The notes beneath the pieces were generated by a model. The model made no database searches. It was not told the origin of the DNA and worked only from the letters and a program-made list of their open reading frames with translations. A program made the translations under genes and the position numbers. A stretch of 64,000 nucleotides of DNA from Escherichia coli (GTDB lineage: Bacteria; Pseudomonadota; Gammaproteobacteria; Enterobacterales; Enterobacteriaceae): assembly GCF_024298765.1 (NCBI RefSeq), contig NZ_CP101210.1; one strand, given 5' to 3'. Below, one piece after another: positions 2,557 to 36,430 of this stretch (position 1 is its first letter; every line of letters starts with the position of its first letter).

Positions 2557-3297
2557 TTAACTGGCGGTGACGTTGATTTCTGCAACCGCAGCAAACTCAC
2601 CATTACCAGATACGACCGGAATGTTGACCTTGCCTGCAGCAACACCTTTCACGGTGATGGTCATACCACTGACCGACACGGTGGCTTTTGTTTTATCCGC
2701 AGACACCGCACGGAAGCTCTTGTCGGTTGCGCCATCCGGCTGGAATGCCACGGTCAGCGTGGTGCTCTGCCCTTTCACTACGGAAGCACTGGCGGGTGTC
2801 ACCGTCATGCCGGTCGTCGCCGTCACCGTGCTGCGATCTTCTGCCATCGACGGACGGCCCACATTGGTGACCTTCACCGTGCGGGTAATCACTTCCTTCG
2901 CCGTCACCGCCTTACCGATACTGCTGACCCAGCCACGGAACACATCGACCGTGCCGTTCGGGAAGCGGATTTTATAGGCACGGGTATCACCTTCATTAAA
3001 CCACGCCAGCAGCGCCTGCTGCCCCTGCTCTCCGGGCATCCACGCCAGCGTGAAGCTGGTATCTCCGGCAGATTTCTGCCCCTGCCCGGTCGCAGTCCAG
3101 TCTGCATCTTCATCATCGAGATAGCTGTCGTCATAGGACTCAGCGGTCAGTTCGCCGGGCGTCAGGTCTTTAACTTTTGCCAGACGCGACCAGTCAACGT
3201 CTGAAAGCGGGTTCGCATAAGGGTCACCGCTCCCCTTATAAACCCACAGGGTGGTTCCGGCACCTTTCACCGGTATTGCTGGATTTGGTACAGGCAT
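2557..3297 (-). CDS. V: major tail protein V
   Basis: ORF 2557..3327; internal start MPVPNP... gives 246 aa like lambda gpV; C-terminal Ig-like domain. Confidence 0.9.
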
Positions 3298-3304
3298 ATC
3301 GTCC

Positions 3305-3700
3305 TCACATTTCATAGGTAATGACATACGTCAGATCGGCAGAACTCCACAAGCCCGCATCATCGTCGCGCCGGTAGTCATAGCCACTGGCCACCATACT
3401 GGTGATCAAATCTGACAGTGCCGGGATATCGCTCATCACCGGATAAATCCGGGACTCCATCCACGCATCCAGCTCTGAATCCGGCACCTGAGCAGGCAGG
3501 AAAACTTCAATATGCAGCTCCGCCTGCCAGGTATCGCTGTCCAGCTCTTCGCCCGTGTATTCAGCGCCGGTGAGATAAACGGCAATTGCCGGAAAATCTT
3601 CCTCATCAAAAACAGCAGGGCGACCATCAAAAAACGTCGCCCCGGTGTCATGCTTCTCCAGTGCATCCAGTACGGCTGCACGGAGTTCAGTATGTTTCAT
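3305..3700 (-). CDS. U: tail terminator protein U
   Basis: 131 aa [16 protein letters not shown]..., lambda gpU. Confidence 0.9.
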
Positions 3701-4640: not shown

Positions 4641-4651
4641 AGCGCCTCCCG

Positions 4652-5047
4652 TTATTGCATTCTGGCCAGGCCGCGCTCTGTCATTTCAGCTGCCACACCG
4701 GCAGAGACACGGAACGCCGTTCCCGGCAGCACAAATGCCACAGCCTCATCCCGCGTGGCGTGAAGTGCATCAGTATGCAGCGTCACCAGTGCCACAACCG
4801 TGACCAGATCAGCCGTATCAGTCACGGTATCCGGCTGCGCTGATACCACCTCATTTTCATGTCCGGTCAGCGCATTTTCCGGGCTGACAGATGTGTCCTG
4901 ACCGGCAGCGTCATCCGTGTCATCAAGCTCCTCTTCCAGCTCTGCCACACGGAGCGCCAGTTCTTCTTTCGTCCCCGTCAGGCTGACATCACGGTTCAGT
5001 TGTTCACCCAGCGAGCGGAGACGGGCAATCAGTTCATCTTTCGTCAT
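4652..5047 (-). CDS. FI: DNA packaging protein FI
   Basis: ORF 4652..5086; internal start MTKDELIARLRSLGEQ... gives ~131 aa like lambda gpFI. Confidence 0.85.
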   Translation of the reverse strand: MTKDELIARLRSLGEQLNRDVSLTGTKEELALRVAELEEELDDTDDAAGQDTSVSPENALTGHENEVVSAQPDTVTDTADLVTVVALVTLHTDALHATRDEAVAFVLPGTAFRVSAGVAAEMTERGLARMQ

Positions 5048-5088
5048 GGACTCCTCCACAGAGAAACAATGGCCCCGAAGGGCCATGA

Positions 5089-5868
5089 TTACGCCAGTTG
5101 TACGGACACGAACTCATCAGGGTCAGCCAGCAGCATCAGCGGTGCTGACTGAATCATGGTGAACTCACGCGCCGGATCGCCGGTGGTCACCCAGTTTTTC
5201 GGGTAACGGGCAGAGGCGTTAATGCCTTCGCGCTGTGCGTCCGCATCCTGAATGCAGCCATAGGTGCGCAGACCGCGTGCATGAGTGTTACCCAGCACCA
5301 TCGTGTTGTCCGGCAGGAAGTTCTTTTTGACGCCGTTTTCCACGTACTGTCCGGAATACACGACGATGGCCACATCGCCATACATCCCCTTATAGGACAC
5401 CGCTTTACCCAGGTCTTTCACCGCTGTCTCCAGCTCGGAATGAGAGCCGCGACGGGTATCCAGCTTCTCCTTGACGGCGTTGAAGGAACGGAACAGCGCC
5501 CAGCCTTTCGGATCAAACACGATGATATTCACCACGCCGCTGGCGTTCAGCGCGTAGGCTTCGATATCGTCGGTCGGGTCATACGTGGACTTGTCACGCT
5601 TGCTCCACTCCGTGCCGCCGGACTGCGTGATGTTGTTCGCCGCACTGCGGCCCATATCCACCTCAACCGGATCGAAGGCTTCACCGGTCATGGTGTATTT
5701 GCCCTTGAGCACGGCAGAAACTGCCTGCATCTCTTCGACCTGAGCAATGGCCAGCTCTTCGTCACGCATGTTCTGCAGGATGATGCGACGGCGGCGGTAA
5801 GCCGGGTCCGCCAGATTCTGCGGATCTTCATCCGGCAGGCGACGCAGGGTCATCTGCGGATTCACTTC
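5089..5868 (-). pseudogene. E: major capsid protein E, C-terminal ~258 codons, separated from its 5' part by a ~10.9 kb insertion
   Basis: ORF 5089..5865 begins EVNPQMTLRRLPDE..., i.e. lambda gpE from about residue 91; no start codon of its own. Confidence 0.9.
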
Positions 5869-5869
5869 A

Positions 5870-5879
5870 TGCTTGGGTT
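5870..5879. repeat. left junction direct repeat (att core copy) TGCTTGGGTT
   Basis: Identical 10-mer at 16754..16763; context atgcttgggtta vs gtgcttgggttt. Confidence 0.8.
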
Positions 5880-5955
5880 ACATGAGTCAAATATGAAAGG
5901 ATGTGAATGATTTGATTACGTTTTAGCTATAGAATTGAAATGGAAAATCCTTGAA

Positions 5956-5976
5956 TGCAATACAACGTGCAATACA
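5956..5976. repeat. GCAATACA direct repeats near left end (candidate arm-type integrase sites)
   Basis: tgcaatacaacgtgcaatacatgg; the same motif recurs at the right end. Confidence 0.45.
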
Positions 5977-6013
5977 TGGATGAAAACCATCACTCATTTA
6001 ACAAGAGGAATCT

Positions 6014-6919
6014 ATGCGCTCACCCAACAGAATGCATGAACGCTCAACATTTTATAAGTATATGTCGTTGAATACCGCGAAGATTGTTCTTGATTCATGC
6101 AGCCTTAGATGGAGTTCTCCGGTCCTATTTAATGACCCTTTTGATGTTCCAAGAGAAGTTATGCCTGGTATTAACGAAATTAATATTGGCAAAGCTTTAG
6201 CCCGCAAGTTAATAGCGGAGTTGATTACCCCCAGAGAAGACATACAAAATTTAAACCCTAGAATTAGAACAATGCTAAGTGATTTCCAAAAGTCATTTCC
6301 TTTAGGCATACCCGCAGGATTAATTGAAAGATTTCAAGAAATGGTAAACATTCCACCAGTTGGGATTGGCGCTCCTGCGGCAATACAAGAAATGAAAGAT
6401 ATCTGGCGAGGAATGCTTAATAACAGAAGGATTTTGTGTTTATCTGAGAGCCCTATAATCACTCCTATGTGGAATCACTATGCCGATAAATATAAAGGTA
6501 TAGTTATCGAATTTGATTGTGTAGACTTTCTGGATAGCGCTTGGTTAATAGCCAAACCTATGAAATACACAGATGAAATGCCTCTAACTCACACTGCTGA
6601 AGGGATGGCCGAGTTGCTTTTCATGCCAGACAATAAGTCAATTGAATATATCAATAATGAGATAATATTCATAAAAACAGAAGAATGGGCATATGAAAGA
6701 GAGTGGAGAATTTCAACCTACGCTAGGCCAAATAGCACTGGTCAATATAGCGACTTAAAATTTCACCCTTTTGAGTTAAAATCTGTAATACTTGGTCCTC
6801 TTTTTGATGCCAGCGAGTTCGATGAAGTCGCATCACTAGTTAAAATGTATCCAAGAGCGAAATTATTTAAAAGTTCATTTGGGAACGACAGAAAAATATC
6901 CATAGTACCACTACCTTAA
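6014..6919 (+). CDS. DUF2971-like hypothetical protein, AT-rich cargo
   Basis: 301 aa; motifs FYKY, LFNDPFD, EWAYEREWR recalled as DUF2971-like; codon usage visibly more AT-rich than neighbours; hairpin terminator follows. Confidence 0.6.
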   Translation: MRSPNRMHERSTFYKYMSLNTAKIVLDSCSLRWSSPVLFNDPFDVPREVMPGINEINIGKALARKLIAELITPREDIQNLNPRIRTMLSDFQKSFPLGIPAGLIERFQEMVNIPPVGIGAPAAIQEMKDIWRGMLNNRRILCLSESPIITPMWNHYADKYKGIVIEFDCVDFLDSAWLIAKPMKYTDEMPLTHTAEGMAELLFMPDNKSIEYINNEIIFIKTEEWAYEREWRISTYARPNSTGQYSDLKFHPFELKSVILGPLFDASEFDEVASLVKMYPRAKLFKSSFGNDRKISIVPLP

Positions 6920-7025
6920 AAGGTCAAATGCTTTTGACAAATAAAATCTATCGCCAGTTTTACTGGCGACTTTTAAGCAACAAAGAACCACCTAAGCACT
7001 CTTCCTACCTATGGTTTCATTTGTT

Positions 7026-7577
7026 TTAACTTCGCTGATTATCCTTGATATACCTTTCAGCCATATCTGGAATGTTATCTGAGATCTGGTAAGCTCGAAT
7101 AAATGCTTTACTGACCTCCATCTTAATGAAGTCCTGATACCGTTTTTCCATGCCAGGAAACTGTCGACAGATCGCAAGTGGAAGACTATCAATGATTGCT
7201 CCAACTTCCCCAGTTAATTTCGACAAGGCATAAGTCGCAAATGCAGTGTCAATTACCTCACCTGTTTCGCTGGCATTCTTCAGTTCCTGTGCGTCGGCCT
7301 GCGCACGCGTAAGTCGATGGCGTTCGTACTCAATAGTCCCTGGCTGGAGATCTGTCTCGCTGGCCTGCCGCAGTTCTTCAACTTCCCGGCGCAGCTTTTC
7401 GTTCTCAATTTCAGCATCCCTTTCGGCATACCATTTTATGACGGCGGCAGAGTCATAAAGCACCTCATTACCCTTGCCACCGCCTCGCAGAACGGGCATT
7501 CCCTGTTCCTGCCAGTTCTGAATGGTACGGATACTCGCACCGAAAATGTCAGCCAGCTGCTTTTTGTTGACTTCCAT
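7026..7577 (-). CDS. terminase small subunit Nu1-like; N-terminal ~100 aa identical to the prophage Nu1, C-terminal half divergent
   Basis: 183 aa; MEVNKKQLADIFGASIRTIQNWQEQG... identical to ORF 22397..22942 over the DNA-binding domain, then about half-identical. Confidence 0.85.
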   Translation of the reverse strand: MEVNKKQLADIFGASIRTIQNWQEQGMPVLRGGGKGNEVLYDSAAVIKWYAERDAEIENEKLRREVEELRQASETDLQPGTIEYERHRLTRAQADAQELKNASETGEVIDTAFATYALSKLTGEVGAIIDSLPLAICRQFPGMEKRYQDFIKMEVSKAFIRAYQISDNIPDMAERYIKDNQRS

Positions 7578-7599
7578 TGTTCATTCCACGGACAAAAAC

Positions 7600-7790
7600 A
7601 GAGAAAGGAAACGACAGAGGCCAAAAAGCTCGCTTTCAGCACCTGTCGTTTCCTTTCTTTTCAGGGGGTATTTTAAATAAAAACATTAAGTTACGACGAA
7701 GAAGAACGGAAACGCCTTAAACCGGAAAATTTTCATAAATAGCGAAAATCCGCGCGCCTGACGCCCCGTAGCCTGTCAGATCGCCGGAAA
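7600..7790 (-). other. cos-like site of the element: cosB conserved, cosN divergent
   Basis: Aligns base for base with prophage cos at ~22960..23150; the 12-nt cohesive-end sequence differs at 5 positions (aggtcgccgccc vs cgcctgacgccc on the + strand). Confidence 0.7.
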
Positions 7791-7822
7791 GGACCCGCCA
7801 GCCAGAGCGGGCCCTAATTTCA

Positions 7823-8206
7823 TCAACCAATCAGCTTATAGCGACCATCCCGTGCATTGCGGCGTACACGCTCAATCTTGAGGCATAGCGCCGCATCTGG
7901 CTTTTTTGGGACAGGTACGCGGCAATATTCAGAAGCGCGAGGAATATTATTTATCCAGTCGATCACTTCACTTAAATACCAGGCCTTACGCCCTTCCGTA
8001 ACCTGCACACGCTCCGGGAACTCTCCACTAGCCTCAAGGTTTAGCAGTGTACGCCGACTCAGGGTTGTAATTTCCATCACCTGATTCATATCAACAAGGC
8101 GCTCGCTTAAACACATTTTGTCAGCGATAGCTTTTAATTCCTCTACAGCTGGATTCGGGTACATCATTTCGGCAATTGGCTTAAGGTCATTGTAATCATT
8201 CTGCAT
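7823..8206 (-). CDS. AlpA-family DNA-binding protein with N-terminal extension
   Basis: 127 aa; C-terminal part (ITTLSRRTLLNLEASGEFPERVQVTEGRKAWYLSEVIDWI) resembles AlpA/excisionase-type wHTH. Confidence 0.6.
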   Translation of the reverse strand: MQNDYNDLKPIAEMMYPNPAVEELKAIADKMCLSERLVDMNQVMEITTLSRRTLLNLEASGEFPERVQVTEGRKAWYLSEVIDWINNIPRASEYCRVPVPKKPDAALCLKIERVRRNARDGRYKLIG

Positions 8207-8217
8207 TGTATCCCCCT

Positions 8218-8559
8218 TTACACACGAGCCAGCGGCTGAACAGAAATACCTGAGCCAACAAACGCTGCAATCTTTACTGACAGTTCTTTTACAGACTCAG
8301 GCCAGTTCAGAGCATCAACATTTAAGACACCTGTCTTATAGACCTGAGCCTGTGTTTTTTTCGCGGTGTCGATTTGTACAGCGGAAACATAAACCGCTTT
8401 ACCTACGCTCGAACCATCCCATACCACCAGTGCACCTGTTGCATCTTCCTGCATCAGTGGCGTAAATGCAGGAATTACCCCTTTATTAGCTGAAAATATC
8501 CCCAGCGTAGTCACCAGTGCTTCAGTGCCAGCCATGAGTTCAGTGTAATGAGTAGCCAT
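8218..8559 (-). CDS. head decoration protein, gpD family
   Basis: 113 aa; ...VVWDGSSVGKAVYVSAV...FVGSGISVQ parallels lambda gpD ...[17 protein letters not shown]...FAGTAISIV. Confidence 0.65.
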   Translation of the reverse strand: MATHYTELMAGTEALVTTLGIFSANKGVIPAFTPLMQEDATGALVVWDGSSVGKAVYVSAVQIDTAKKTQAQVYKTGVLNVDALNWPESVKELSVKIAAFVGSGISVQPLARV

Positions 8560-8568
8560 TGCTCCCCC

Positions 8569-9609
8569 TTAGCCAATGCGAACGGTAACAAAACGATTGA
8601 TGCGGGCCGGTATTGGCTGTGGTGCTGAATGTGTCTGCACATATTCAATAGCCGGATCACCAGGCACAATATAGTTTTTCGGTGCAAGTTCGGCTTTAGT
8701 CAGCCCCATTCGGATTAGCTCCGGATCCTGAATACCGCCATAGGCGACAATCCCCTGAAGAGCCGTATTGCCAAGCACCATCAAATCAGGATCAAGGAAA
8801 TGTTTTTCAGTTCCGTCCTCGTCGGTATAACGCCCGCTGTATACAACAATCGCAACATCGCCCATATACCCTTTAAAACTCACCGAATCACCAAGGTCTT
8901 TAAGGGCCGTTTCCAGTTCGGAATTAGAGCCACGACGGGTATCCAGAGCCTCTTTTATCGCTCTGAATGAACGGTATTTCTTCCATACATTACCGCCCAT
9001 AATGATGATATTAGTGACGCCCTCACTAAATTCTGCGTAGCTCTCAATATCATCATTTGGATCAAAAGTTTCTTTATCCTTACCTGACCACTCAGCACCG
9101 CCAGACTGAGTGATGATATTTTGTGGTTTAATATTCCAGTCCAGCTCATAACGTTCAATACCATCGCCCTCAATGATATTTTTCCCCGTTGTGATTGCCT
9201 GAACGGCAAGCCATTCAATACGTGCACGAATAGATTTAGCCTGATTTACAATCGCCTGTTTAACTTTAATATTACGCGCTCCAAAAGCATTGTATTGCTC
9301 AGGTGATACACCAGCAGGGCGCACAGCTAACTTATTTGGATCAATGCTGCTTTTCGGCTTCATATAGCCTGGACGAATTGTTTTTGATTCGTACCCTTCG
9401 TCACGTGAAACTTTACTACCCACCATAGGAGAACAAAACGCTGCAATTGGGATATTTGGATCGTCGATTGTATCAAGAATAATATCGCGCGATTCAAACA
9501 TTACCGAGCGAGTAAAAAACAAACTGGTAAACAACGCATTTAGTTGTTTTTGTACATCTACAGCATTAACCACCTGTACAAGCTGGGTAGGCGAATATAA
9601 ATCAACCAT
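8569..9609 (-). CDS. major capsid protein, gpE family, divergent paralog of prophage E
   Basis: ORF 8569..9783; likely start MVDLYSPTQL... after AAGAGG RBS; conserved blocks TQSGGAEWSGKDKETFDPNDDIESYA and TRRGSNSELETALKDLG match gpE. Confidence 0.8.
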   Translation of the reverse strand: MVDLYSPTQLVQVVNAVDVQKQLNALFTSLFFTRSVMFESRDIILDTIDDPNIPIAAFCSPMVGSKVSRDEGYESKTIRPGYMKPKSSIDPNKLAVRPAGVSPEQYNAFGARNIKVKQAIVNQAKSIRARIEWLAVQAITTGKNIIEGDGIERYELDWNIKPQNIITQSGGAEWSGKDKETFDPNDDIESYAEFSEGVTNIIIMGGNVWKKYRSFRAIKEALDTRRGSNSELETALKDLGDSVSFKGYMGDVAIVVYSGRYTDEDGTEKHFLDPDLMVLGNTALQGIVAYGGIQDPELIRMGLTKAELAPKNYIVPGDPAIEYVQTHSAPQPIPARINRFVTVRIG

Positions 9610-9826
9610 ACGCATCCTCTTTGCATTCATTAAAAATAATTGTGGATATATGCTATCACCGATATTTGTCATGCGAATACATGCAACCGAGTGCAATGTT
9701 GTATAAAGTTTTGGGATAACAACTTCAGCGCGGATAATTAGTGTTAATATCTTAACTCCCTTTGGTCGGGATTTATGTAGCATGCCGGAAAATTTATTTT
9801 TTTCCGGCCTTTTTTATTGGCAATAT

Positions 9827-10276
9827 TTAAAACGGAATATCATCTCCCCATTGCTCATTATCTCCCACTGGTGGATGGCTTCCTTGCTGATCTGCCTGTT
9901 GTTTTGCTCTGTTCAGTGCGTCAGTAGCCTGACCCTGTTGACCTTTTTTGCCGCCCGGTCGCACCGTTCGCGCACTGATTACGCTGTCTGCGATAACCTG
10001 CCAGCCCTGCCGCGTTTCACCGTTCTGTCCAGTCCACTGGCTCACCTGCATATTACCCGCCACGCTCAGGAGTTCGCCTTTGTGATGCTTTGCCAGCGCG
10101 TCGGCTTGTCTGCCAAACGCCAGGACAGATAACCACATCGTCGCCGTTCCGTCATCTGCCTGGCTGCATGGCAAAGATACCGCCATCCGTGCCAGTGTCA
10201 TGGGTGTTCCCTTGCTGGTATGTTTTACCTGTGGGTCGTCCACCAGCCGCCCGTAAGCTGCTATTTGCGCCGTCAT
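9827..10276 (-). CDS. SSB-like single-stranded DNA-binding protein
   Basis: 149 aa; OB-fold-like N-terminus and C-terminal acidic tail ending DDIPF, the SSB hallmark. Confidence 0.6.
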   Translation of the reverse strand: MTAQIAAYGRLVDDPQVKHTSKGTPMTLARMAVSLPCSQADDGTATMWLSVLAFGRQADALAKHHKGELLSVAGNMQVSQWTGQNGETRQGWQVIADSVISARTVRPGGKKGQQGQATDALNRAKQQADQQGSHPPVGDNEQWGDDIPF

Positions 10277-10287
10277 GCTGCCTGCTC

Positions 10288-10530
10288 TCAGGACTTAATA
10301 TTGATGGTTGTCACTTCCTCCGCTTCGGCAATCTCCCGTTCGGTCAGCGTGGCAAAGTTTGCAGCCGCCGTTGTCATGAATGCGCTTATCAGTTCGGGAT
10401 GTGCTTTCGCGTATCCTTCCCCGGCGTTGCGGTCTATTGCCTTAATCGCCACCCTTAGCCAGTGTTCAGCCATATCAAGGGCGCGGTAATGTGGCTTTAT
10501 ATGTTTGTTCAGTTTTCCTGATGTGTGCAT
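10288..10530 (-). CDS. hypothetical protein
   Basis: 80-aa ORF downstream of the iteron region, same strand as the replication genes. Confidence 0.4.
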   Translation of the reverse strand: MHTSGKLNKHIKPHYRALDMAEHWLRVAIKAIDRNAGEGYAKAHPELISAFMTTAAANFATLTEREIAEAEEVTTINIKS

Positions 10531-10569
10531 TTTTATTTTTACCCCCTCGTTTAAAAAGTTTTTTGTGCA

Positions 10570-10805
10570 CCACCACCTTGTCTACCTTGTCTACCTGATT
10601 AGTTATCAGGCCAGTAATGGCGCGGGTTTCAGGGAGGTAGACAGCCCCAAATAGCTGTCTACCTCATCTCTACCCGTCTCCTTACCTGTCTACAAAAATG
10701 GGTAGATAAGGTAGATAACAGGTAGACAGTGAAAAATAGTTATCTACCTGCATTAATGCATTGAAATAAAAGTATTTTATTTCAGTCAGGTAGACAAGGT
10801 AGATA
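10570..10805. repeat. iteron array GGTAGAYA (11 or more copies, both orientations): candidate replication origin
   Basis: ttgtctaccttgtctacc, ggtagacag, ctgtctacc, ggtagataaggtagataacaggtagacag, ttatctacc, ggtagacaaggtagataa; immediately downstream of the primase-helicase gene. Confidence 0.75.
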
Positions 10806-10819
10806 ACCATTGCCATTTT

Positions 10820-12571
10820 TTATAAAAACGCATCGCAATCATCAGTAGTCGTTGCGTTGGTCTGCGTGACTCCCTTAACTTTTCGCGTAATATATTCATA
10901 TCCGTAAACTTTCGCCGCTGACCTCATAGCCTTTCCGAACTCATTCACGCTCAAACATTTCCCCTTTCCTGTATATGCCATGAAGGCCATATAGACACGG
11001 TAAAGGCTGTTTCTGGTCGTGTACTTCACGGTGTCACCACCACCGCCCATCATTAGCCCACGAGCTTCCTCCAGAAACTCCAGCGCCGCGCAAAGCTCAA
11101 CAACCGGATCCGTTTGCTGCTTTATTGCCAGAGCTTCATCACCGTCACGCTGTTCCAGTAATAAAGCCCGTGCCTTTTCAGGGTCAGCAAAATTAGCCAG
11201 CAAGCGGCGGATAATTACGGGGATTTCTGCCGCTATCTTTTCCGGTAATTCCTTGTCTTTTTCGTCCTCCCTTACAATGTTGTCGAACCGGAAAATCACC
11301 CGACGGCGTGACACACCTCCGGCCCGTTCGGTAAAGATCATCGGGTCGTTATTGGTTGCCAGTACCACCGCCCTTATTATCGTCGTGAATCGCTTCTCAT
11401 ATTTCGGGTTAATTTCAACGGGATCGCCTCCCGTGATTTTCTTGATGCCCGTGCCTTCCCCCGTATATTTCGGCTGATCGGCAAGGACGATAAGACGACT
11501 CCCGACAACCTGCGCACGCCCTCCTGCATCATCGAGTGATGTCATCTCTGCGCTTACGGTGTTCTGTTTGCCAGCAAGCAGGGTGGCAATATGGGTAAAT
11601 GTACTCTTACCGCTTCCCCCGTCTCCGGTGGCCTCAATGAACATCTGCCAGTCGTACCGGTTCGCCATAATCATGTACAGCGCGGCACATATACGCATCA
11701 TCTTGCGCGGGTCTTTTCCGGCTGCGTGCTCAAGCCATTTATGAAAGTTTGGCGCGTTATCGCGGATGTTCTCCCCTGGTGCTGGTGGCGTGTACTCAAT
11801 GCCGTTGTGCGTGGTGATCCAGTTCTCCGGCGTGTGCGGGGAAAATTCCCCCGTTTTCAGGTCAAGCGCACCATTGGCGAACGGCAGCAAATCGCCGGAC
11901 GGCTCGCCCATTGGTTCGGCAATAACTTTTAACGCTTCAACGGCGTTATTGATCACGCGTTTGCTGAAAGTGGCCCTGTGCTCTGAATAGATCGCCACCA
12001 TTTCGCGGCTCAGCTCCATTGTGCTGATCGGACACCATACCCCGCCGCGCCATACGTGAACGATTTCACTTTCCGGATGCACACAAACGCCATCAAAGCG
12101 CTCGGCAAGCAGCTGCGCGCGCTCACTGTCTGCCATCTGTGAAAGTTGCGCCTTTTGCTTCGTCGGAAGATTAAGCACCAGGCTTTCCCCACGCTCGCAT
12201 TCCTCTTTGAGTCGCGGCAACTGGTCGGATAAATCCACTGGGCTGATGTCAGTAATCCCCGCGTATTCGTGTACGGTCTTCACTCCAGCCACAGCCAGTA
12301 ACGTAACAATCTGCGTCATGCTGTGCTCTGTGATATGTCCTGCGCGGTAAACACGCACACACTGACGATCTTCATCAATGATCCGGTAATCGGTGATGTT
12401 TTTCAGTTGCTCATCAGCCAACACGACAGGCGGCACATCGTCGGCGGCAATATGTTTACCCGCCCATTCCTGCCACTCTTTCGCATGGCTCCACGCATCA
12501 CTACCTGCAAAGATGATTATCTCTGTCAGTCTGTCGCGTGGCTGTTTTTTTAAGTTCGGTGCCAGTTTCAT
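10820..12571 (-). CDS. primase-helicase (P4 alpha / D5-type replication protein)
   Basis: 583 aa; Walker A GDGGSGKST in the C-terminal half; domain layout as in satellite and plasmid primase-helicases. Confidence 0.75.
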   Translation of the reverse strand: MKLAPNLKKQPRDRLTEIIIFAGSDAWSHAKEWQEWAGKHIAADDVPPVVLADEQLKNITDYRIIDEDRQCVRVYRAGHITEHSMTQIVTLLAVAGVKTVHEYAGITDISPVDLSDQLPRLKEECERGESLVLNLPTKQKAQLSQMADSERAQLLAERFDGVCVHPESEIVHVWRGGVWCPISTMELSREMVAIYSEHRATFSKRVINNAVEALKVIAEPMGEPSGDLLPFANGALDLKTGEFSPHTPENWITTHNGIEYTPPAPGENIRDNAPNFHKWLEHAAGKDPRKMMRICAALYMIMANRYDWQMFIEATGDGGSGKSTFTHIATLLAGKQNTVSAEMTSLDDAGGRAQVVGSRLIVLADQPKYTGEGTGIKKITGGDPVEINPKYEKRFTTIIRAVVLATNNDPMIFTERAGGVSRRRVIFRFDNIVREDEKDKELPEKIAAEIPVIIRRLLANFADPEKARALLLEQRDGDEALAIKQQTDPVVELCAALEFLEEARGLMMGGGGDTVKYTTRNSLYRVYMAFMAYTGKGKCLSVNEFGKAMRSAAKVYGYEYITRKVKGVTQTNATTTDDCDAFL

Positions 12572-12867
12572 TTTTTGCCCCTGAATGCGTTAATCATGCT
12601 TTTCATTTTCTGGATGTTTCCCCGCGCTTTTTCCCTGCTGATGGGCTTACTGCGGGGTGCGGCATATACCAGGGAAAAATCACGCCGGAACTGATAAACA
12701 GGCATCACGCAGTCATAGCTATACCCCTCACGACGGTAAGTGATGCGCCGTTCTGCCACGCCTTTAATCGTTACCGTGCCGCCGTATTTATCGCGGTAAA
12801 TATCGCCGTTCATAAATTCAGGCCGAGCGGGGCCGCTGGCAATAAAGCCAGAATTTTTCATTTCCAT
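12568..12867 (-). CDS. hypothetical protein
   Basis: 99-aa ORF, abuts the primase-helicase start. Confidence 0.4.
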   Translation of the reverse strand: MEMKNSGFIASGPARPEFMNGDIYRDKYGGTVTIKGVAERRITYRREGYSYDCVMPVYQFRRDFSLVYAAPRSKPISREKARGNIQKMKSMINAFRGKK

Positions 12868-12884
12868 ATTATTTATTCCTCGAC

Positions 12885-13106
12885 TTAACTCGACTTATTT
12901 GATAGCTGGGCACTATTTATTGCGTCATTGAGTTTTTCTGCTGCTTCATCAATAAGTGACAACAGGCCATAAGCAATATTTGCATCTTCATTGTCATTTA
13001 TGCAATCAAGCCACATATTTAATATTGCTTTTGCTGAATTATTTAAAGTTAATGAACTTTCTGCACATGCTAACAATTTAAAAAAGACTTCCCGTTCTGT
13101 ATTCAT
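12885..13106 (-). CDS. hypothetical protein
   Basis: 73-aa ORF in a tightly packed small-gene operon. Confidence 0.4.
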   Translation of the reverse strand: MNTEREVFFKLLACAESSLTLNNSAKAILNMWLDCINDNEDANIAYGLLSLIDEAAEKLNDAINSAQLSNKSS

Positions 13107-13298
13107 TTAATCCCCCACCAGCTTACTTTCTTCCTCAATCAAAAAACTAGCGACACTTCCCGAAAGACGCGCCAGTAGGCTCGCCAGTGCGGATATATCA
13201 GCATCTGTAATTTTGTTCGGGTATACCTCAAGAAGGCGGCAAATAATTTCTGTCTGGTGCGCACGTTCAGCGGCTTCGTGTAATGTGATTTCCTGCAT
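13107..13298 (-). CDS. hypothetical protein
   Basis: 63-aa ORF; its stop abuts the next ORF. Confidence 0.4.
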   Translation of the reverse strand: MQEITLHEAAERAHQTEIICRLLEVYPNKITDADISALASLLARLSGSVASFLIEEESKLVGD

Positions 13299-13483
13299 TA
13301 ATGCACCTCTTTTAATTCATACACTGCTGAAATAATGACTTGTGATAAGCCATATTCTGATGATTCGCTTCTCACCGCAGCAATAGCCGTCTGAACATTA
13401 ACAGCCTTCACATTCTGAGCGATACCAATTGTGTGGCCTATTGGGTTAACAGCTCGGGCAAATACACGGAAGGTTTTAAGCAT
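13298..13483 (-). CDS. hypothetical protein
   Basis: 61-aa ORF, first gene of the leftward operon. Confidence 0.4.
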   Translation of the reverse strand: MLKTFRVFARAVNPIGHTIGIAQNVKAVNVQTAIAAVRSESSEYGLSQVIISAVYELKEVH

Positions 13484-13863
13484 GACTCACTCCCTGGCGG
13501 ATTTTTGCAGCGAATACAGCAACACAACCGGACGGGCAACGGCTACGCGCTTCGCGTTCCGTCCAGGCGGTTACGTGGATGATTTGAGATTCTCCGGCAC
13601 TCAGTGCCAGAAAACGCCACACAAAGGCCGTTTGTGTGTGTACAAGGTGTGGTATATGATTTACAGCAACCATAACGGCTCCTAGTTTACGTTGTTGGTT
13701 AGACGCCCCGTATGTGTTCCCAGCACTGCGGGGCGTTGCTCTTTGTATTTCAACAATCCTTTCGGTGTGTTTCATGTTATGAGCGCATGAAACACACGTC
13801 AAGGCTTTTTGTATTTCTTTTTTTGTGTATACTGAAACACACCGATGATTAGGAGTTTCAGAA

Positions 13864-14169
13864 ATGGCAACGGCTAACAAAAACGCAAAATCACAACTGA
13901 CAACTGTCAGAGTCCCACTAGATGTTATGCAAGGGATGGAATCCGTTAAGCTGGACGGTGAAAGCAATGCCGGATTTATCGTAACCGCCATGCGCGGTGA
14001 AATCGCCCGCCGCCAGGCAGAAGGAAGCGGAGAAAATCCCCTCGTGTCTTCACTGGATGCCTTAGCTAAGGTCGAACAAATCGGCATCAAGGCAGCGGAG
14101 GAAATCGGGCAACTCGTAGCCGTCGCTCGTGAAGAACTCCAGCGGCGTAAAGCCAAAGAATCTGAATAA
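13864..14169 (+). CDS. putative ribbon-helix-helix transcriptional regulator
   Basis: 101 aa; AGGAG RBS; TVRVPLDVMQGMESV...NAGFIVTAMRGEI fits a beta-strand plus two helices; divergent from the small-gene operon. Confidence 0.5.
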   Translation: MATANKNAKSQLTTVRVPLDVMQGMESVKLDGESNAGFIVTAMRGEIARRQAEGSGENPLVSSLDALAKVEQIGIKAAEEIGQLVAVAREELQRRKAKESE

Positions 14170-14519
14170 TTAGTATCAGCGCCGTGATGTGAGTAACTAC
14201 GGCGCATTGCTATGTAAATACTGGCAATAAACAGAAAAGGTAGTTCTACTCCGAATAATTTTATCTGACACTACTCCTGAACTAACATGCGCTTATCTTA
14301 CAGGATATAAATATAAATCCATAAAATCACGATTAAATAAAGTCGCTCCAAACATAAACCACACCCAACGCTTAACAAGATAGCAACAAACAGGTAAATA
14401 ACTTGCAGAAATATTTATCGCAAGGATTATCATTATTAATGACAAATCACTTTACCAAGTCATTCCCCTCTCTTATCATAAAGAGAAAGTAATAAATAAG
14501 TTAAGGGAGTTAGAATGCT

Positions 14520-15056
14520 ATGAATCTAAAAAAAATAGCCACAAACACAAAAAACAAGATAACAGAAACATTTAATAAACTTATATTAGAGGCATCTAAA
14601 ACCCCCACACAAGATGAAATTAAAATACTTGAGAGAAGGAGTAAGAAGTTTAATTACTCCTTTTTCTCATACGCAGTCACAGGAGCTATAATAGTTTTTT
14701 GCTCTCAACCATTAATTAAATACGCAAACCCAATACTTATTTTATTGAGTGGTCTGTTACTGTCTATCATCATTATCATTCTCAGAATGATTTATATTTC
14801 ACAAGCGAATGCATCATGGACAACCAAAAAACGCTCACATGTACTAGTTCATTTTCTTTCTGCATGTTTCATAGCATCAACATTGACGTTGCTATATCAG
14901 GCTTACGATAATAACATCACACACAAATTGTACTGTAAAAATATACAACAACTTATTGAAAAAAGGATAAAAACAGAAAAAAACATCAGCATATTCAGTG
15001 GGATGCAATGCACCCCGGTATATGATTACTCTTTATTTGGATTTAATCTCTTATAA
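14520..15056 (+). CDS. hypothetical membrane protein, AT-rich cargo
   Basis: 178 aa; three hydrophobic segments (AVTGAIIVFCSQPLI, ILILLSGLLLSIIIIIL, VLVHFLSACFIASTLTLL); GGGAG RBS; AT-rich. Confidence 0.55.
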   Translation: MNLKKIATNTKNKITETFNKLILEASKTPTQDEIKILERRSKKFNYSFFSYAVTGAIIVFCSQPLIKYANPILILLSGLLLSIIIIILRMIYISQANASWTTKKRSHVLVHFLSACFIASTLTLLYQAYDNNITHKLYCKNIQQLIEKRIKTEKNISIFSGMQCTPVYDYSLFGFNLL

Positions 15057-15067
15057 AGAATGTTATT

Positions 15068-15101
15068 ACTGATTTGAGTACAAATTCTCAAATCAGTAAT
15101 T
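15068..15101. terminator. perfect 13-bp inverted repeat hairpin between convergent genes
   Basis: ttactgatttgag-N8-ctcaaatcagtaa. Confidence 0.5.
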
Positions 15102-15125
15102 CATAATATTTTATTCTGAGATAAT

Positions 15126-15353
15126 TTAAACTACCCACTCACCTCGAATCCATGCCTGCACTTCTGAAAGACGATATGCAACAGCAGTGGAACCAATCTT
15201 GATCCGCTTAGGAAATTTTCCTTCCTTCTCCAGCTTCCAGCGTGTGCTGTTCGCAAGAGTGGTTAGCTCCCGACATTCTTTCTCACGGATCATTCGGTCA
15301 ATGTTAGGAATGTACTCCAGACCCTTTTTATCAACAATTGCCATTTTTTTCAT
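15126..15353 (-). CDS. alpA: AlpA-family regulator/excisionase-like protein
   Basis: ORF 15126..15362; ...LTTLANSTRWKLEKEGKFPKRIKIGSTAVAYRLSEVQAWI typical of AlpA; directly follows int. Confidence 0.65.
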   Translation of the reverse strand: MKKMAIVDKKGLEYIPNIDRMIREKECRELTTLANSTRWKLEKEGKFPKRIKIGSTAVAYRLSEVQAWIRGEWVV

Positions 15354-15354
15354 G

Positions 15355-16590
15355 TTAACCAACCTTTTGTTTGAGGATTGTCACTTTTGAATCAGCACCT
15401 GCGATGCTATTGAGATATGTAGTCCAGAGTTCCAGAGCATCCAGTTTTTTAGCCATAAACTTACTCCGGTTGTAAACACCTGCCACGCCAGGTAGCGCAT
15501 GGCCTAACAGTTGTTCTACTACATAAAATTCAACACCGAGATCACTTAGATGAGTAGATAGCGTTCTTCTAAGGTCGTGTAGTGACCATTGTTTTTCATG
15601 GCCCAAACGTTTACCGATTTTCCCCCCAATCTTGCTTACGCTTTCTCTAATTCGCAGACTTCCCAGCACATAACCAGTATGTTTTGTCTCTTCGTGAACA
15701 TCCGTTACCCACTGTCGTAGAATTTCAGGTACTGGTCTGACGATTTCAACACCAGTTTTTGAGTGATCTTTTGGTACAGTCCAAACCCAACTTTCGAGAT
15801 CCCATTCGCTCCATTCTGATAATCGGGCTTCACTCATTCGACATCCAAATACTGTACAAAGCACAAACATTTTTCGCGTGTATTCAGACATTAGTTTTAA
15901 ATCAGGCTCGACAAAAATTGCCTTCCAGAGCTGGCCGAGTTCGGCTTCATCCAGAACCCGATCCCGCTTACCTGCAATCTGCCCCACATCACTCATGCGC
16001 AAATCCTTTAAAGCATCACACGTCGCGTACTGGCGTACCCGACAAAAACGAAGAGCTAATTTAGTGTCAGAAAAAACATACGCCGCCATAACTGGTGCAT
16101 TACGTTTAATTCGGTCAAAACAGTCCAGCCATTCATATAGGTGAGTGTCATTTACGGGCAAATGACCGATATAGGGAAAGATATGCTTTCGAAATCTGCC
16201 AAGCGTTACAGCATGAGTTTTACGACGCACCTTACAGTAATTTTCATACCAGTAATTTAGTGCATCCTCCACTGTAACTGGCTTTAAGCGTTCTTCAGCC
16301 TGAATCTTAATCTGGATACGCGGATCACGTTTGTCAGCCAACCAACCACGGCACTCGTCGCGCTTTTCCCTTGCCTGTTTGAGTGACATATCAGGATATT
16401 TACCCAACGTTAGCCAGACCGGAGCAGCCCGGCCACCTGCTAACCTGTAGAAGAAAACAAAGCTCACAGCCCCTTTAGTACTCACACGAATAGAAAGCCC
16501 CTTTCCATCAGCAATGGTGATCTGCTTTTCTCTGGGTTTCCCCAGATATCCTTTAAGCGCTTTGTCGCTCAGTTTGTTCTCGCCAGCCAT
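15355..16590 (-). CDS. int: tyrosine integrase, P4-like
   Basis: ORF 15355..16641; probable start MAGENKLSDKALKG...; C-terminal catalytic region with HDLRRT and GH motifs. Confidence 0.85.
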   Translation of the reverse strand: MAGENKLSDKALKGYLGKPREKQITIADGKGLSIRVSTKGAVSFVFFYRLAGGRAAPVWLTLGKYPDMSLKQAREKRDECRGWLADKRDPRIQIKIQAEERLKPVTVEDALNYWYENYCKVRRKTHAVTLGRFRKHIFPYIGHLPVNDTHLYEWLDCFDRIKRNAPVMAAYVFSDTKLALRFCRVRQYATCDALKDLRMSDVGQIAGKRDRVLDEAELGQLWKAIFVEPDLKLMSEYTRKMFVLCTVFGCRMSEARLSEWSEWDLESWVWTVPKDHSKTGVEIVRPVPEILRQWVTDVHEETKHTGYVLGSLRIRESVSKIGGKIGKRLGHEKQWSLHDLRRTLSTHLSDLGVEFYVVEQLLGHALPGVAGVYNRSKFMAKKLDALELWTTYLNSIAGADSKVTILKQKVG

Positions 16591-16605
16591 TTTTAGCCCC
16601 AAAAA

Positions 16606-16640
16606 GCAATACAAGCTGCAATACAGAGATGATTGCAACA
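16606..16640. repeat. GCAATACA repeats near right end (candidate arm-type integrase sites)
   Basis: aagcaatacaagctgcaatacagagatgattgcaacaca between int start and the right junction. Confidence 0.45.
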
Positions 16641-16752
16641 CACAGATAACGAGGAAAATTCAGTGAAAGCACCAGATAAACTTATTCTTTATTATCAAAA
16701 GATTAAGTGTAAAAACCAGCAACTACACGAAAGCCTCAGAAAGCCATGCTAA

Positions 16753-16998
16753 GTGCTTGGGTTTGACATATCCCGGCGTAAATTCAGAGGTGGAGCCGCC
16801 ACGGGAACGGATAACCTCACCGGAAACAATCGGCGAAACGTACAGCGCCATGTTTACCAGTCCCGGAATTTGTGAGAGATAGACTTTCTCCGTAGTGAAG
16901 GGATAGCTCTCACGGAAAAAGAGACGCAGAAACAGCGGATCAAACTTAAATTTCTGCTCATTTGCCGCCAGCAGCTGGGCGGTTGTGTACATCGACAT
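16753..16998 (-). pseudogene. E: major capsid protein E, N-terminal ~90 codons; frame runs into the insertion and stops at 16723
   Basis: ORF 16723..17025: MSMYTTAQLLAANEQKFKFDPLF...GYVKPKH then LAWLSEAFV* from element DNA. Confidence 0.9.
16754..16763. repeat. right junction direct repeat (att core copy) TGCTTGGGTT
   Basis: Identical 10-mer at 5870..5879. Confidence 0.8.
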
Positions 16999-17053
16999 AA
17001 AAAAATCCCGTAAAAAAAGCCGCACAGGCGGCCTTTAGTGATGAAGGGTAAAG

Positions 17054-23330: not shown

Positions 23331-23525
23331 ATGTCAACGAAGAACAGAACCCGCAGAACAACAACCCGCAACATCCGCTTTCCTAACCAAATGATTGAAC
23401 AAATTAACATCGCTCTTGAGCAAAAAGGGTCCGGGAATTTCTCAGCCTGGGTCATTGAAGCCTGCCGTCGGAGACTAACGTCAGAAAAGAGAGCATATAC
23501 ATCAATCCAGAGTGATGATGAATAA
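23331..23525 (+). CDS. hypothetical protein (lambda orf64-like)
   Basis: 64-aa ORF between cos and bor, as in lambda. Confidence 0.6.
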   Translation: MSTKNRTRRTTTRNIRFPNQMIEQINIALEQKGSGNFSAWVIEACRRRLTSEKRAYTSIQSDDE

Positions 23526-23886
23526 ACATCCCGGTTTCTTCCACCATCGCACCGGAAAAGCGACTATGAGGGTAACCCTGCGTCTGTCAGCACAGTAAAA
23601 CCCGGTGTGCATCGTTTTTGATTATTCCCGCACACTCACGCAGAAGGAATTCCCCGTCGGGCTACGGTCATGGTTAATGCGGGAATACGGCGACGATACA
23701 GCGCAGCTAAAAGGGTAATGGACAGAAAGAGCGGTTTATTTCATTCCACAGGATTCTGAGTGCCCCCCCCTCCTCCAATAGGCTGAGCATCCACCTATAT
23801 AGTTTTAATTTTCATCAATCCATTTAACTATCGTTTAATTGTTGTCACATAGGATTCTGCCGTTTTTAACAATGCAGGATAATAAG

Positions 23887-36217: not shown

Positions 36218-36289
36218 GTGCGGCTTTACCGCATACCAATAACGCTTCACTCGAGGCGTTTTTCGTTATGTATAAATAAGGAGCACACC

Positions 36290-36430
36290 ATGCAATATGC
36301 CATTGCAGGGTGGCCTGTTGCTGGCTGCCCTTCCGAATCTTTACTTGAACGAATCACCCGTAAATTACGTGACGGATGGAAACGCCTTATCGACATACTT
36401 AATCAGCCAGGAGTACCCAAAAATGGATAA
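36290..36430 (+). CDS. cIII: CIII (FtsH inhibitor), apparently 8 codons shorter than lambda CIII
   Basis: [46 protein letters not shown] then stop, inside ORF 36218..36430. Confidence 0.8.
   Translation: MQYAIAGWPVAGCPSESLLERITRKLRDGWKRLIDILNQPGVPKNG

Follow-up and report, generated by a model that had tools for sequence, protein, structure and literature searches.

A divergent control region with a ribbon-helix-helix repressor candidate, cognate repeats and a predicted opposite-strand terminator in a helper-embedded island of Escherichia coli

The described systems closest to the locus studied here are the left operon of phage P4, the immI regions of phages P22 and P1/P7, the anti-immunity region of N15, and the control regions of phage-inducible chromosomal islands (PICIs). 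The published regulation of Gram-negative PICIs rests on AlpA, their activator (PMC6092414; PMC11773190), and the matter of a global repressor is unclear (PMC6092414). We analysed a 64,000-nucleotide stretch of Escherichia coli DNA (contig NZ_CP101210.1; hereafter the window) in which a leftward operon of small open reading frames (ORFs) and a primase is divided from a rightward gene for a protein of ribbon-helix-helix (RHH) type. A preliminary description, made from the letters of the window alone, had read positions 12568-14169 as a lysis-lysogeny or helper-sensing switch. Based on comparison with related loci, we regard it as reasonably probable that the region is the immunity and early-control module of a helper-embedded PICI.

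The P4 left operon runs from the promoter P_LE through the CI RNA, the nested genes eta and kil, epsilon and orf151 to the alpha primase. It has in common with the window an alpA-like gene (ORF88 in P4), a control region, a 65-aa Kil/Icd-like product, small ORFs (epsilon among those of P4) and a P4-family primase. In both, the control region is crossed by a longer frame that is in phase with kil. According to the account of P4 biology and of Forti et al. 1999 in PMC10111431, termination is prevented in P4 by translation across the immunity region. The two differ in the immunity RNA of P4, CI (C4), which is processed from the same strand and has an isrK-like target. Models for C4 (RF01695) and isrK (RF01394) had no match in the window at gathering score, nor at E <= 10 in 13300-14300, and matched P4, our control, at 74.9 and 60.8 bits. 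A divergent repressor gene, operators and an opposite-strand terminator, all of them predicted, occupy the place upstream of the kil-like gene that the CI RNA holds in P4.

The immI region of P22 (mnt, Pant, arc, ant, sar) resembles the window in its small RHH repressors, overlapping operators and divergent transcription. The sar antisense RNA covers the ribosome-binding site of the gene it regulates, and Mnt joins an RHH domain to a C-terminal helical oligomerization part, an architecture also predicted for the window protein. P22 differs in having no significant similarity to the window protein (E = 0.4), and the window's predicted targets are a Kil/Icd-like gene and a primase rather than an antirepressor, with a predicted antisense RNA. 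The P1/P7 immI region (c4 RNA, icd, ant) and the N15 anti-immunity region share an Icd-family first gene with the window, a link drawn through NF033153. In these phages control is exerted on RNA at the icd ribosome-binding site, by c4 and CA RNAs that come from the same strand, upstream of icd. The window, which lacks a match to the C4 family, differs in that a protein repressor and an opposite-strand RNA appear to act. Helper-embedded and other Gram-negative PICIs (11capE, EcCICFT073) show the same int, alpA, P4-type primase, capsid gene of their own and insertion in a helper capsid gene. In the Stl/Rpr systems of Gram-positive PICIs (SaPIs), as proposed here, the replication operon is under the control, exerted at the intergenic region, of a master repressor encoded divergently from it (PMC6092414); the repressor candidate in the window differs in belonging to the RHH family.

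Repeats, promoters and the adjacent ribbon-helix-helix protein

Three copies of a short repeat lie in front of the RHH gene. The perfect 12-nt inverted repeat reported earlier was found again as GTGTGTTTCATG (13765-13776) and CATGAAACACAC (13786-13797), 9 nt apart, as was a third copy, TGAAACACACCGA (13833-13845), which also forms a perfect 13-nt inverted repeat with 13762-13774. We compared these repeats with 2000 dinucleotide-preserving shuffles of 13674-13863. Perfect inverted repeats of 12 nt or more around a loop of at most 20 nt arose in none of them (0/2000), those of 13 nt or more around a loop of at most 70 nt in one (1/2000), and three copies of one 10-mer in seven (7/2000). The exact 10-mer TGAAACACAC occurs three times in the window, each time within the control region. 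We refer to the three copies as half-sites O1, O2 and O3 (Table 1).

Homologous regions were gathered from three E. coli genomes and 160 IMG/VR contigs, and the usable set comprised 161 loci with 100 distinct upstream sequences. Read along the plus strand, the layout was constant: the icd start, a GGTTAG motif, the hairpin with its T-rich tail, half-site 1 and half-site 2, followed directly 3' by [G/T]TCAA (the -35 TTGAC of the other strand), then a T-rich stretch, a TATACT-like element abutting half-site 3, a ribosome-binding site and the RHH gene. With these positions held constant, the sequence of the half-sites distinguished at least 20 immunity types, and each type had a single RHH N-terminus across the 161 loci. 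Similar proteins were accompanied by similar sites: TGAAACACAC went with LTTVRVPLDV and TGAAATACAC with MTTVRIPHEV, and other closely related site pairs were TGGCTTACAT with TGTCTTACAC and TGTGGCCCAC with TGTGGTCCAC. O2 and O3 were identical at 10 of 10 positions in the window; their mean identity was 7.5/10 within types compared with 5.7/10 between types (permutation p = 1.5e-4). Operator type was independent of replicase, Icd and AlpA types. The preliminary description had offered operator sites for the RHH protein as one reading of the repeats, and this reading gains comparative support from the covariation of types and from the promoter positions. The repeats, which lie on promoter elements and covary with the RHH protein, are thus supported as its cognate operators at the level of sequence comparison, and the description of the region as a divergent control region holds on the same comparative evidence.

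Types other than that of the window include, as one example, the operator TGTCAGCCAC. A shorter RHH class (MST... start, PPYQMRL-type strands) has two palindromes instead of the half-sites, and its leftward -35 lies inside the RHH start codon region (ATGTCAACA). In NZ_CP038346.1 (O157:H7 G5295), RefSeq annotates an "Icd-like pseudogene" at 2821-3414 on the minus strand of our extracted locus; positions 2798-2971 on the plus strand hold an unannotated 57-aa RHH ORF (MSTPLEKRSPPYQMRLPEDF...) with two GGTAATTACC palindromes in front, which corrects the annotation in that the "pseudogene" hides an RHH gene. In another locus (L004, 1925-2788), two RHH immunity modules stand in tandem in one island.

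The half-sites coincide with predicted promoter elements. The leftward promoter, predicted for the icd-like operon, has -35 TTGACG (13802-13797), a 17-nt spacer and -10 TAACAT (13779-13774), and was the sole promoter-like match in a scan of 13300-14400. Despite differing operators, 69 of 75 distinct contexts kept a -35 of TTGAC[AG]/TTGAA[GA], a 17-18-nt spacer and a TAnnnT -10, and in other immunity types the site equivalent to O2 abuts the conserved -35. The placement of O1 and O2 on this predicted promoter is the classical layout for repression by occlusion. On the rightward side, variants of the candidate -10 (TATACT, CATACT, TATATT) recur in types with a long intergenic region, and O3, which begins at the last base of this element, is likely an autoregulation site of the RHH gene.

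The rightward ORF was present as previously described, with 101 aa at 13864-14169, and the RHH fold proposed for its product agreed with a curated family match, a structure model and structural matches. The protein matched NF041551 (62.6 bits, cut-off 30, E = 2.7e-17), and RefSeq uses the same family name. An alignment-based AlphaFold2 model (pLDDT 84) began with an extended segment at the N-terminus, followed by two helices and, over residues 59-100, a long C-terminal helix; this places the RHH domain at the N-terminus and reproduces the beta-alpha-alpha fold of Arc/MetJ/CopG proteins. Its closest structural matches were RHH antitoxins. We accept the RHH assignment on this modelled evidence, and note that the C-terminal helix is reminiscent of the Mnt oligomerization domain. 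A block of about 40 nt that includes a hairpin is conserved 3' of RHH genes of both classes in related loci; in the window this hairpin, directly 3' of the stop codon, is likely the RHH terminator and a recombination boundary of the module.

The GC-rich hairpin, the Icd-like gene and the opposite strand

Between the half-sites and the operon lies the GC-rich hairpin noted earlier, which we found as ACGCCCCG (13703-13710), 18 nt and CGGGGCGT (13729-13736). The preliminary description had suggested RNA structure prediction and covariance analysis of the region across related elements. In that comparison the hairpin, seen in 27 variants, was kept by structure and not by sequence. RNAalifold placed 13 pairs on it, eight of them with compensatory double changes; 97.7% of the cells counted at paired positions could pair, compared with 38-55% in slid controls, and none of 500 shuffles reached the observed value on any of five measures of pairing. 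The strand on which the structure would act could be read from several features. All 48 wobble cells were G-U on the plus strand, that is, A-C mismatches on the operon strand. The plus-strand RNA was the more stable in 25 of 27 variants and equal in one (means -22.7 vs -16.9 kcal/mol). The 10 nt past the stem held 4-7 T (mean 5.2) on the plus strand vs 1.0 on the minus strand, in 47 of 47 contexts. Because wobble pairs, stability and T-tract all fall on the plus strand, we place the terminator there: a stem of 13-16 pairs followed by a T-rich tail, as in an intrinsic terminator, was found on that strand only. By these sequence statistics the hairpin is a predicted intrinsic terminator that would stop transcripts running rightward, in the sense opposite to the icd operon. 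The earlier suggestion of a structured regulatory RNA is partly borne out: the hairpin is conserved at the RNA level with covariation, on the strand antisense to the operon and not as a structure of the operon's leader.

There is no plus-strand gene to the left of this terminator. A candidate promoter for an antisense RNA lies there, with -35 TTGTGT (13632-13637), a 17-nt spacer and -10 TATGAT (13655-13660). All 75 distinct contexts had the -10 (TATGAT or TATGCT), whose end lies 4 or 10 nt ahead of the complement of the icd start codon. It is accompanied by the TTGTGT -35, at a 17-nt spacing, in one icd type and by a TGn extended -10 in the other. The RNA predicted from these ends would be able to base-pair with the icd-like mRNA along its leader, Shine-Dalgarno sequence and start codon. 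On the plus strand, 13664-13752 folds at -34.4 kcal/mol (z = -4.4; 0 of 200 shuffles as good), compared with z = -0.7 for the leader fold of the opposite strand. Of the parts expected of an antisense RNA, the terminator and the overlap with the target are present, and the promoter consists of a conserved -10 and a second element that is weak. From these predicted elements we conclude that an antisense RNA of about 85 nt, lying across the icd ribosome-binding site, probably terminates at the hairpin. Rfam at E <= 10 over 13300-14300 returned nothing relevant (one irrelevant long non-coding RNA, E = 9). In the second module of L004, the antisense promoter-like TATGCT, start region, terminator and about 15 icd codons are kept, and the rest of icd is gone.

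The target of this predicted RNA is a gene missed in the preliminary description. The roughly 380 bp given as non-coding between the operon and the RHH gene shrink to 190 bp (13674-13863), because 13476-13673 on the minus strand holds a 65-aa Icd-like ORF, and the remaining 190 bp are also crossed by a minus-strand frame that is kept without stops across the family. The Icd-like ORF has the Shine-Dalgarno sequence AGGAG and is annotated by RefSeq in NZ_CP029164.1. It matched NCBIfam NF033153 (E = 1.2e-17, 63.7 bits, cut-off 25) and phrog_1743 (E = 2.4e-22). P4 Kil, also of 65 aa, matched the same two profiles (E = 1.6e-21 and 2.2e-21), scoring 76.1 bits on NF033153. BLASTP of the window protein against the P4 kil ORF gave no alignment, and Pfam had no significant match for the ORF; on this evidence the Icd-like protein is a predicted homologue of P4 Kil, related at the profile level only. 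A tblastn search of 50,697 phage records returned a single match, in an induced satellite-like "phage". Both P4 Kil and P1 Icd inhibit growth.

The four leftward ORFs (12568-13483) were present at the coordinates given earlier, overlapping or abutting. The term "four-gene operon" does not hold, as there are at least five small genes, the Icd-like gene first, and they run on into the primase. The start of the 61-aa ORF overlaps the icd-like stop by 8 nt, and the 99-aa DUF4222 ORF overlaps the primase start by 4 nt; the same DUF4222 gene lies 5' of the replicase in L002-L004. The four small ORFs had PHROG matches only to families of unknown function (Table 1), and no defence model matched them in PADLOC, which also returned no match for the RHH protein or for a 178-aa protein described below.

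A long minus-strand frame in phase with the icd-like gene (13476-14270 in the window) crosses the hairpin, the operators and, in antisense, the RHH gene. We counted stops by phase from the hairpin to the RHH start in 32 sequence-distinct types. The three minus-strand phases contained 103, 108 and 7 stops (binomial p = 1.4e-28), and the phase poor in stops carries on into the antisense phase of the RHH gene that has none. The plus-strand control showed no such effect (45, 71 and 66). In 29 of 32 types the frame joins icd in phase or stops within about 30 nt of its ATG, and in other islands it starts just after alpA or after a Bro-N-type gene. Its extension is of low complexity, with no family match beyond the Icd domain and one weak Ant/Bro-like match. 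A longer ORF in frame with kil over the control region is also the arrangement of the nested eta/kil genes of P4. The stop counts indicate that selection keeps open a frame in which the RHH gene and its operators lie antisense. Counts of synonymous and non-synonymous changes in the RHH region (339/356 for the plus frame vs 300/408 for the minus frame) were indecisive, because the third codon positions of both frames coincide.

A proposed switch and alternative explanations

The features above suggest a two-layered switch. In this scheme the 101-aa RHH protein would bind the three cognate half-sites (TGAAACACAC). Bound at O1 and O2, it would shut the leftward promoter and with it the icd/kil-like gene, the four small ORFs, the primase and the downstream genes; bound at O3, it would repress its own rightward promoter and so regulate itself. 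The antisense RNA of about 85 nt would add a translational lock on the toxic Kil/Icd-like product. Upon helper induction, AlpA-dependent transcription from upstream together with translation of the long frame might override both locks, which is a guess, and the link between AlpA and the RHH module is a conjecture. A wider form of this idea would make the RHH protein a master or immunity repressor serving a large group of Gram-negative PICIs, with at least 20 exchangeable specificities. Its gene and operators would lie antisense within an eta-like ORF for which staying open is the sole conserved property, and AlpA-driven head-on transcription and translation upon helper induction would silence the repressor, bypass the antisense lock and commit the island to replication. 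We consider this wider form possible and put it forward tentatively. If it is true, such a switch consists of two fully overlapping, opposed genes.

Several observations count against this interpretation, beginning with the fact that all of its functional steps are inferred. The promoter scan found one site compared with 1.8 in shuffles, no better than chance; the -35 of the rightward RHH promoter is poor and T-rich; and the antisense promoter scores 8/12, under the scan threshold. The T-tract of the terminator is interrupted in the window (TGCTCTTTGTATTT). The long frame in the window is without its usual N-terminal part, and a 178-aa AT-rich gene lies there instead. Pfam did not recognize the RHH protein and Foldseek returned no match for it, and its two top PDB profile matches, a CopG RHH protein followed by Mnt (E = 0.4), were non-significant. 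Finally, two RHH types share the beta-strand LNARFPH yet differ in the outer half of the operator, so specificity is not read from the strand alone and no simple recognition code applies.

Other explanations were weighed for the same features. The repeats might be replication-origin iterons bound by the primase/helicase of the island, like the ori/crr octamers of P4. The P4 ori does have short repeats beside its alpA-like gene, and those of the window, likewise short and present three or four times, precede the replication genes. However, one operator type can accompany either a primase-type or a RepA-type replicase and either Icd type, so that the repeats do not covary with the initiator in a comparison of replicase N-termini in truncated loci; the operators instead correspond one-to-one with the adjacent RHH N-terminus and sit exactly on promoter elements. 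We therefore consider iterons very unlikely. AlpA, the PICI master activator, might bind the repeats in place of the RHH protein, and it does activate the gene downstream of alpA in EcCICFT073 (PMC6092414). The operators track the RHH protein rather than AlpA, however: at least nine operator types were found alongside a single AlpA type (at least 90% identical), and four AlpA types alongside the operator type of the window. The independence of operator type from replicase and AlpA argues against iterons and AlpA sites alike, and we find binding by AlpA highly improbable. A toxin-antitoxin-like pair, in which the RHH protein would neutralize an Icd/Kil-like toxin by contact as well as by repression, would fit the antitoxins among the top structural matches and the established growth inhibition by P4 Kil and P1 Icd. 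Yet the two genes are divergent and not co-transcribed, in contrast to type II systems, and RHH/operator types reassort freely with Icd types, which speaks against co-evolved protein contacts; of all the explanations this is the one we find hardest to credit.

The remaining alternatives concern the opposite strand. The whole region could code for a long protein, Bro/Eta-like and ending in an Icd domain, which would make the RHH ORF and the repeats incidental, and both the open minus-strand frame in 29 of 32 types and the long "Icd-like" proteins present in RefSeq and PHROGs are in keeping with this. Against it, the RHH ORF has a curated family match, a confident fold and matching operators, and the N-terminal extension is of low complexity without a family match. 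The short 65-aa ORF is kept in every type, and in the types read its ATG follows a Shine-Dalgarno-like sequence. Stops interrupt the Icd frame within about 180 nt upstream in about half of the first 41 distinct upstream regions, which leaves only the short form in these. We judge the incidental status of the RHH gene quite improbable, and note that a long protein and an RHH repressor are not mutually exclusive. The hairpin, for its part, might act on the minus strand in the operon leader, as an immunity RNA like CI of P4 or CA of N15, an attenuator or a stabilizing stem-loop. Its place in the leader, 3' of the predicted start (about 13767) and 5' of the icd Shine-Dalgarno sequence, is that of the CI RNA in P4, and the minus strand also forms a hairpin, although a weaker one. 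But the 48 wobbles are G-U on the plus strand only, the minus-strand fold is the weaker in 25 of 27 variants, the minus strand carries no T-tract (1.0 T per 10 nt in 47 contexts), the leader fold has a z of only -0.7, and neither C4 nor isrK matched; a leader function is unlikely.

The surrounding island and its significance

The coordinates of the control region and of the genes on either side are collected in Table 1.

Table 1. Predicted and annotated features of the control region and adjoining genes (positions in the window)
Feature	Position	Strand	Remarks
P4-family primase, 583 aa	10820-12571	-	phrog_864, E = 6e-162; TIGR01613, E = 3e-30
Small ORF, 99 aa, DUF4222	12568-12867	-	phrog_285, E = 1.5e-30; RefSeq DUF4222
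Small ORF, 73 aa	12885-13106	-	phrog_2196, E = 1.7e-28, function unknown
Small ORF, 63 aa	13107-13298	-	phrog_1478, E = 2.5e-34, function unknown
Small ORF, 61 aa	13298-13483	-	phrog_3672, E = 9e-46, function unknown; RefSeq hypothetical protein
Icd-like / P4 Kil-like gene, 65 aa	13476-13673	-	first gene of the operon; missed in the preliminary description
Long open frame in phase with icd-like gene	13476-14207	-	243 aa from first ATG
Candidate antisense RNA promoter	13632-13660	+	inside icd-like codons 4-14
Predicted cis-antisense RNA, ~85 nt	13667-13751	+	start near 13667, end near 13745-13751
Predicted intrinsic terminator	13702-13751	+	stem-loop 13702-13737, then T-rich tail TGCTCTTTGTATTT
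Half-site O1 (GGTGTGTTTCA, inverted copy)	13762-13776		overlaps end of leftward -10 and predicted start
Predicted sigma-70 promoter of icd-like operon	13774-13802	-	start near 13767
Half-site O2 (TGAAACACAC)	13786-13797		in leftward promoter spacer, abutting -35
Candidate -10 TATACT of RHH promoter	13828-13833	+	consensus match only
Half-site O3 (TGAAACACACCGA)	13833-13845		begins at last base of rightward -10 TATACT
RHH repressor candidate, 101 aa, YlcI/YnfO family	13864-14169	+	NF041551, fold model
Hairpin GCGCCGT...ACGGCGC and ATTGCTATG	14179-14214	+	directly 3' of RHH stop codon
AlpA-like HTH gene	15126-15362	-	RefSeq annotation
Integrase	15355-16641	-	RefSeq annotation

Positions 13400-14250 match, with 100% identity, the E. 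coli strain 104 chromosome (NZ_CP029164.1), whose RefSeq annotation gives an island of about 11.5 kb. In order of transcription on the minus strand of the window, the island carries the integrase, the AlpA-like helix-turn-helix (HTH) gene, the control region, the primase, a single-stranded DNA-binding protein (SSB) gene and onward; 3' of the SSB gene are a major capsid gene and a decoration gene of its own, an HTH gene and a DUF262/HEPN pair. The island (about 4650-16700) splits the lambda-E-like major capsid gene of a lambdoid prophage, with flanks at 16723-17025 and about 4652-5440. By RefSeq annotation, the capsid pseudogene halves flank the series from int through primase to capsid, all co-oriented on the minus strand. 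This is the arrangement of a helper-embedded PICI and matches the E:Phage_cap_E class (11capE, E:Phage_cap_E:80), which is already published (PMC10111431; Tommasini et al. 2023). The control region falls in the dynamic "Bro zone" of PMC10111431, between the integration and replication zones. Parts of the module were present in 1261 of 5426 complete E. coli genomes.

Other genes of the island and its helper were observed along the way. A predicted membrane protein of 178 aa (14520-15056, plus strand) has a GC content of about 0.31, compared with 0.44-0.50 in the adjoining DNA, and had no NCBIfam, PHROGs or PADLOC match; it looks like an acquired accessory gene, and related islands such as L005 (593-1171) have a Bro-N-type gene in its place. 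The DUF262 protein (6014-7577, plus strand) matched the PADLOC candidate defence family PDC-S31 (E = 2e-32), with a HEPN-domain protein directly downstream on the plus strand by RefSeq annotation, and the pair looks like defence cargo at the far end of the island. The helper prophage has a YlcI/YnfO-family gene of its own, ylcI (23332-23526, plus strand), beside a Nu1-like packaging gene, so members of this family are encoded by both helper and satellite; the exact half-site of the satellite was not found in the portion of the helper prophage within the window. A Lambda CIII thermoregulator element lies in the helper prophage at 36277-36335 on the plus strand (Rfam RF01804, 88.5 bits). A tRNA scan found none, and an Rfam search across the whole window gave no match at gathering score.

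What is already known here is the island class, AlpA, the Icd-like and YlcI/YnfO family names and the logic of P4. In the literature on YlcI/YnfO, on RHH proteins of PICIs and on Icd in satellites, we found no description of the RHH-operator-terminator module, of its reassorting specificities or of the open frame through the repressor. The layer of repression missing from the picture of Gram-negative PICIs would be supplied by an RHH repressor that is encoded divergently and has its cognate operators on the early promoter. Its many reassorting specificities could explain immunity between co-resident satellites, and matched operator and protein pairs would give orthogonal repressor-operator sets. 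The opposite-strand terminator and the stop-free frame bear on how a P4-like control logic may be rebuilt with different parts, in a group of islands that is widespread and that spreads defence and virulence genes.

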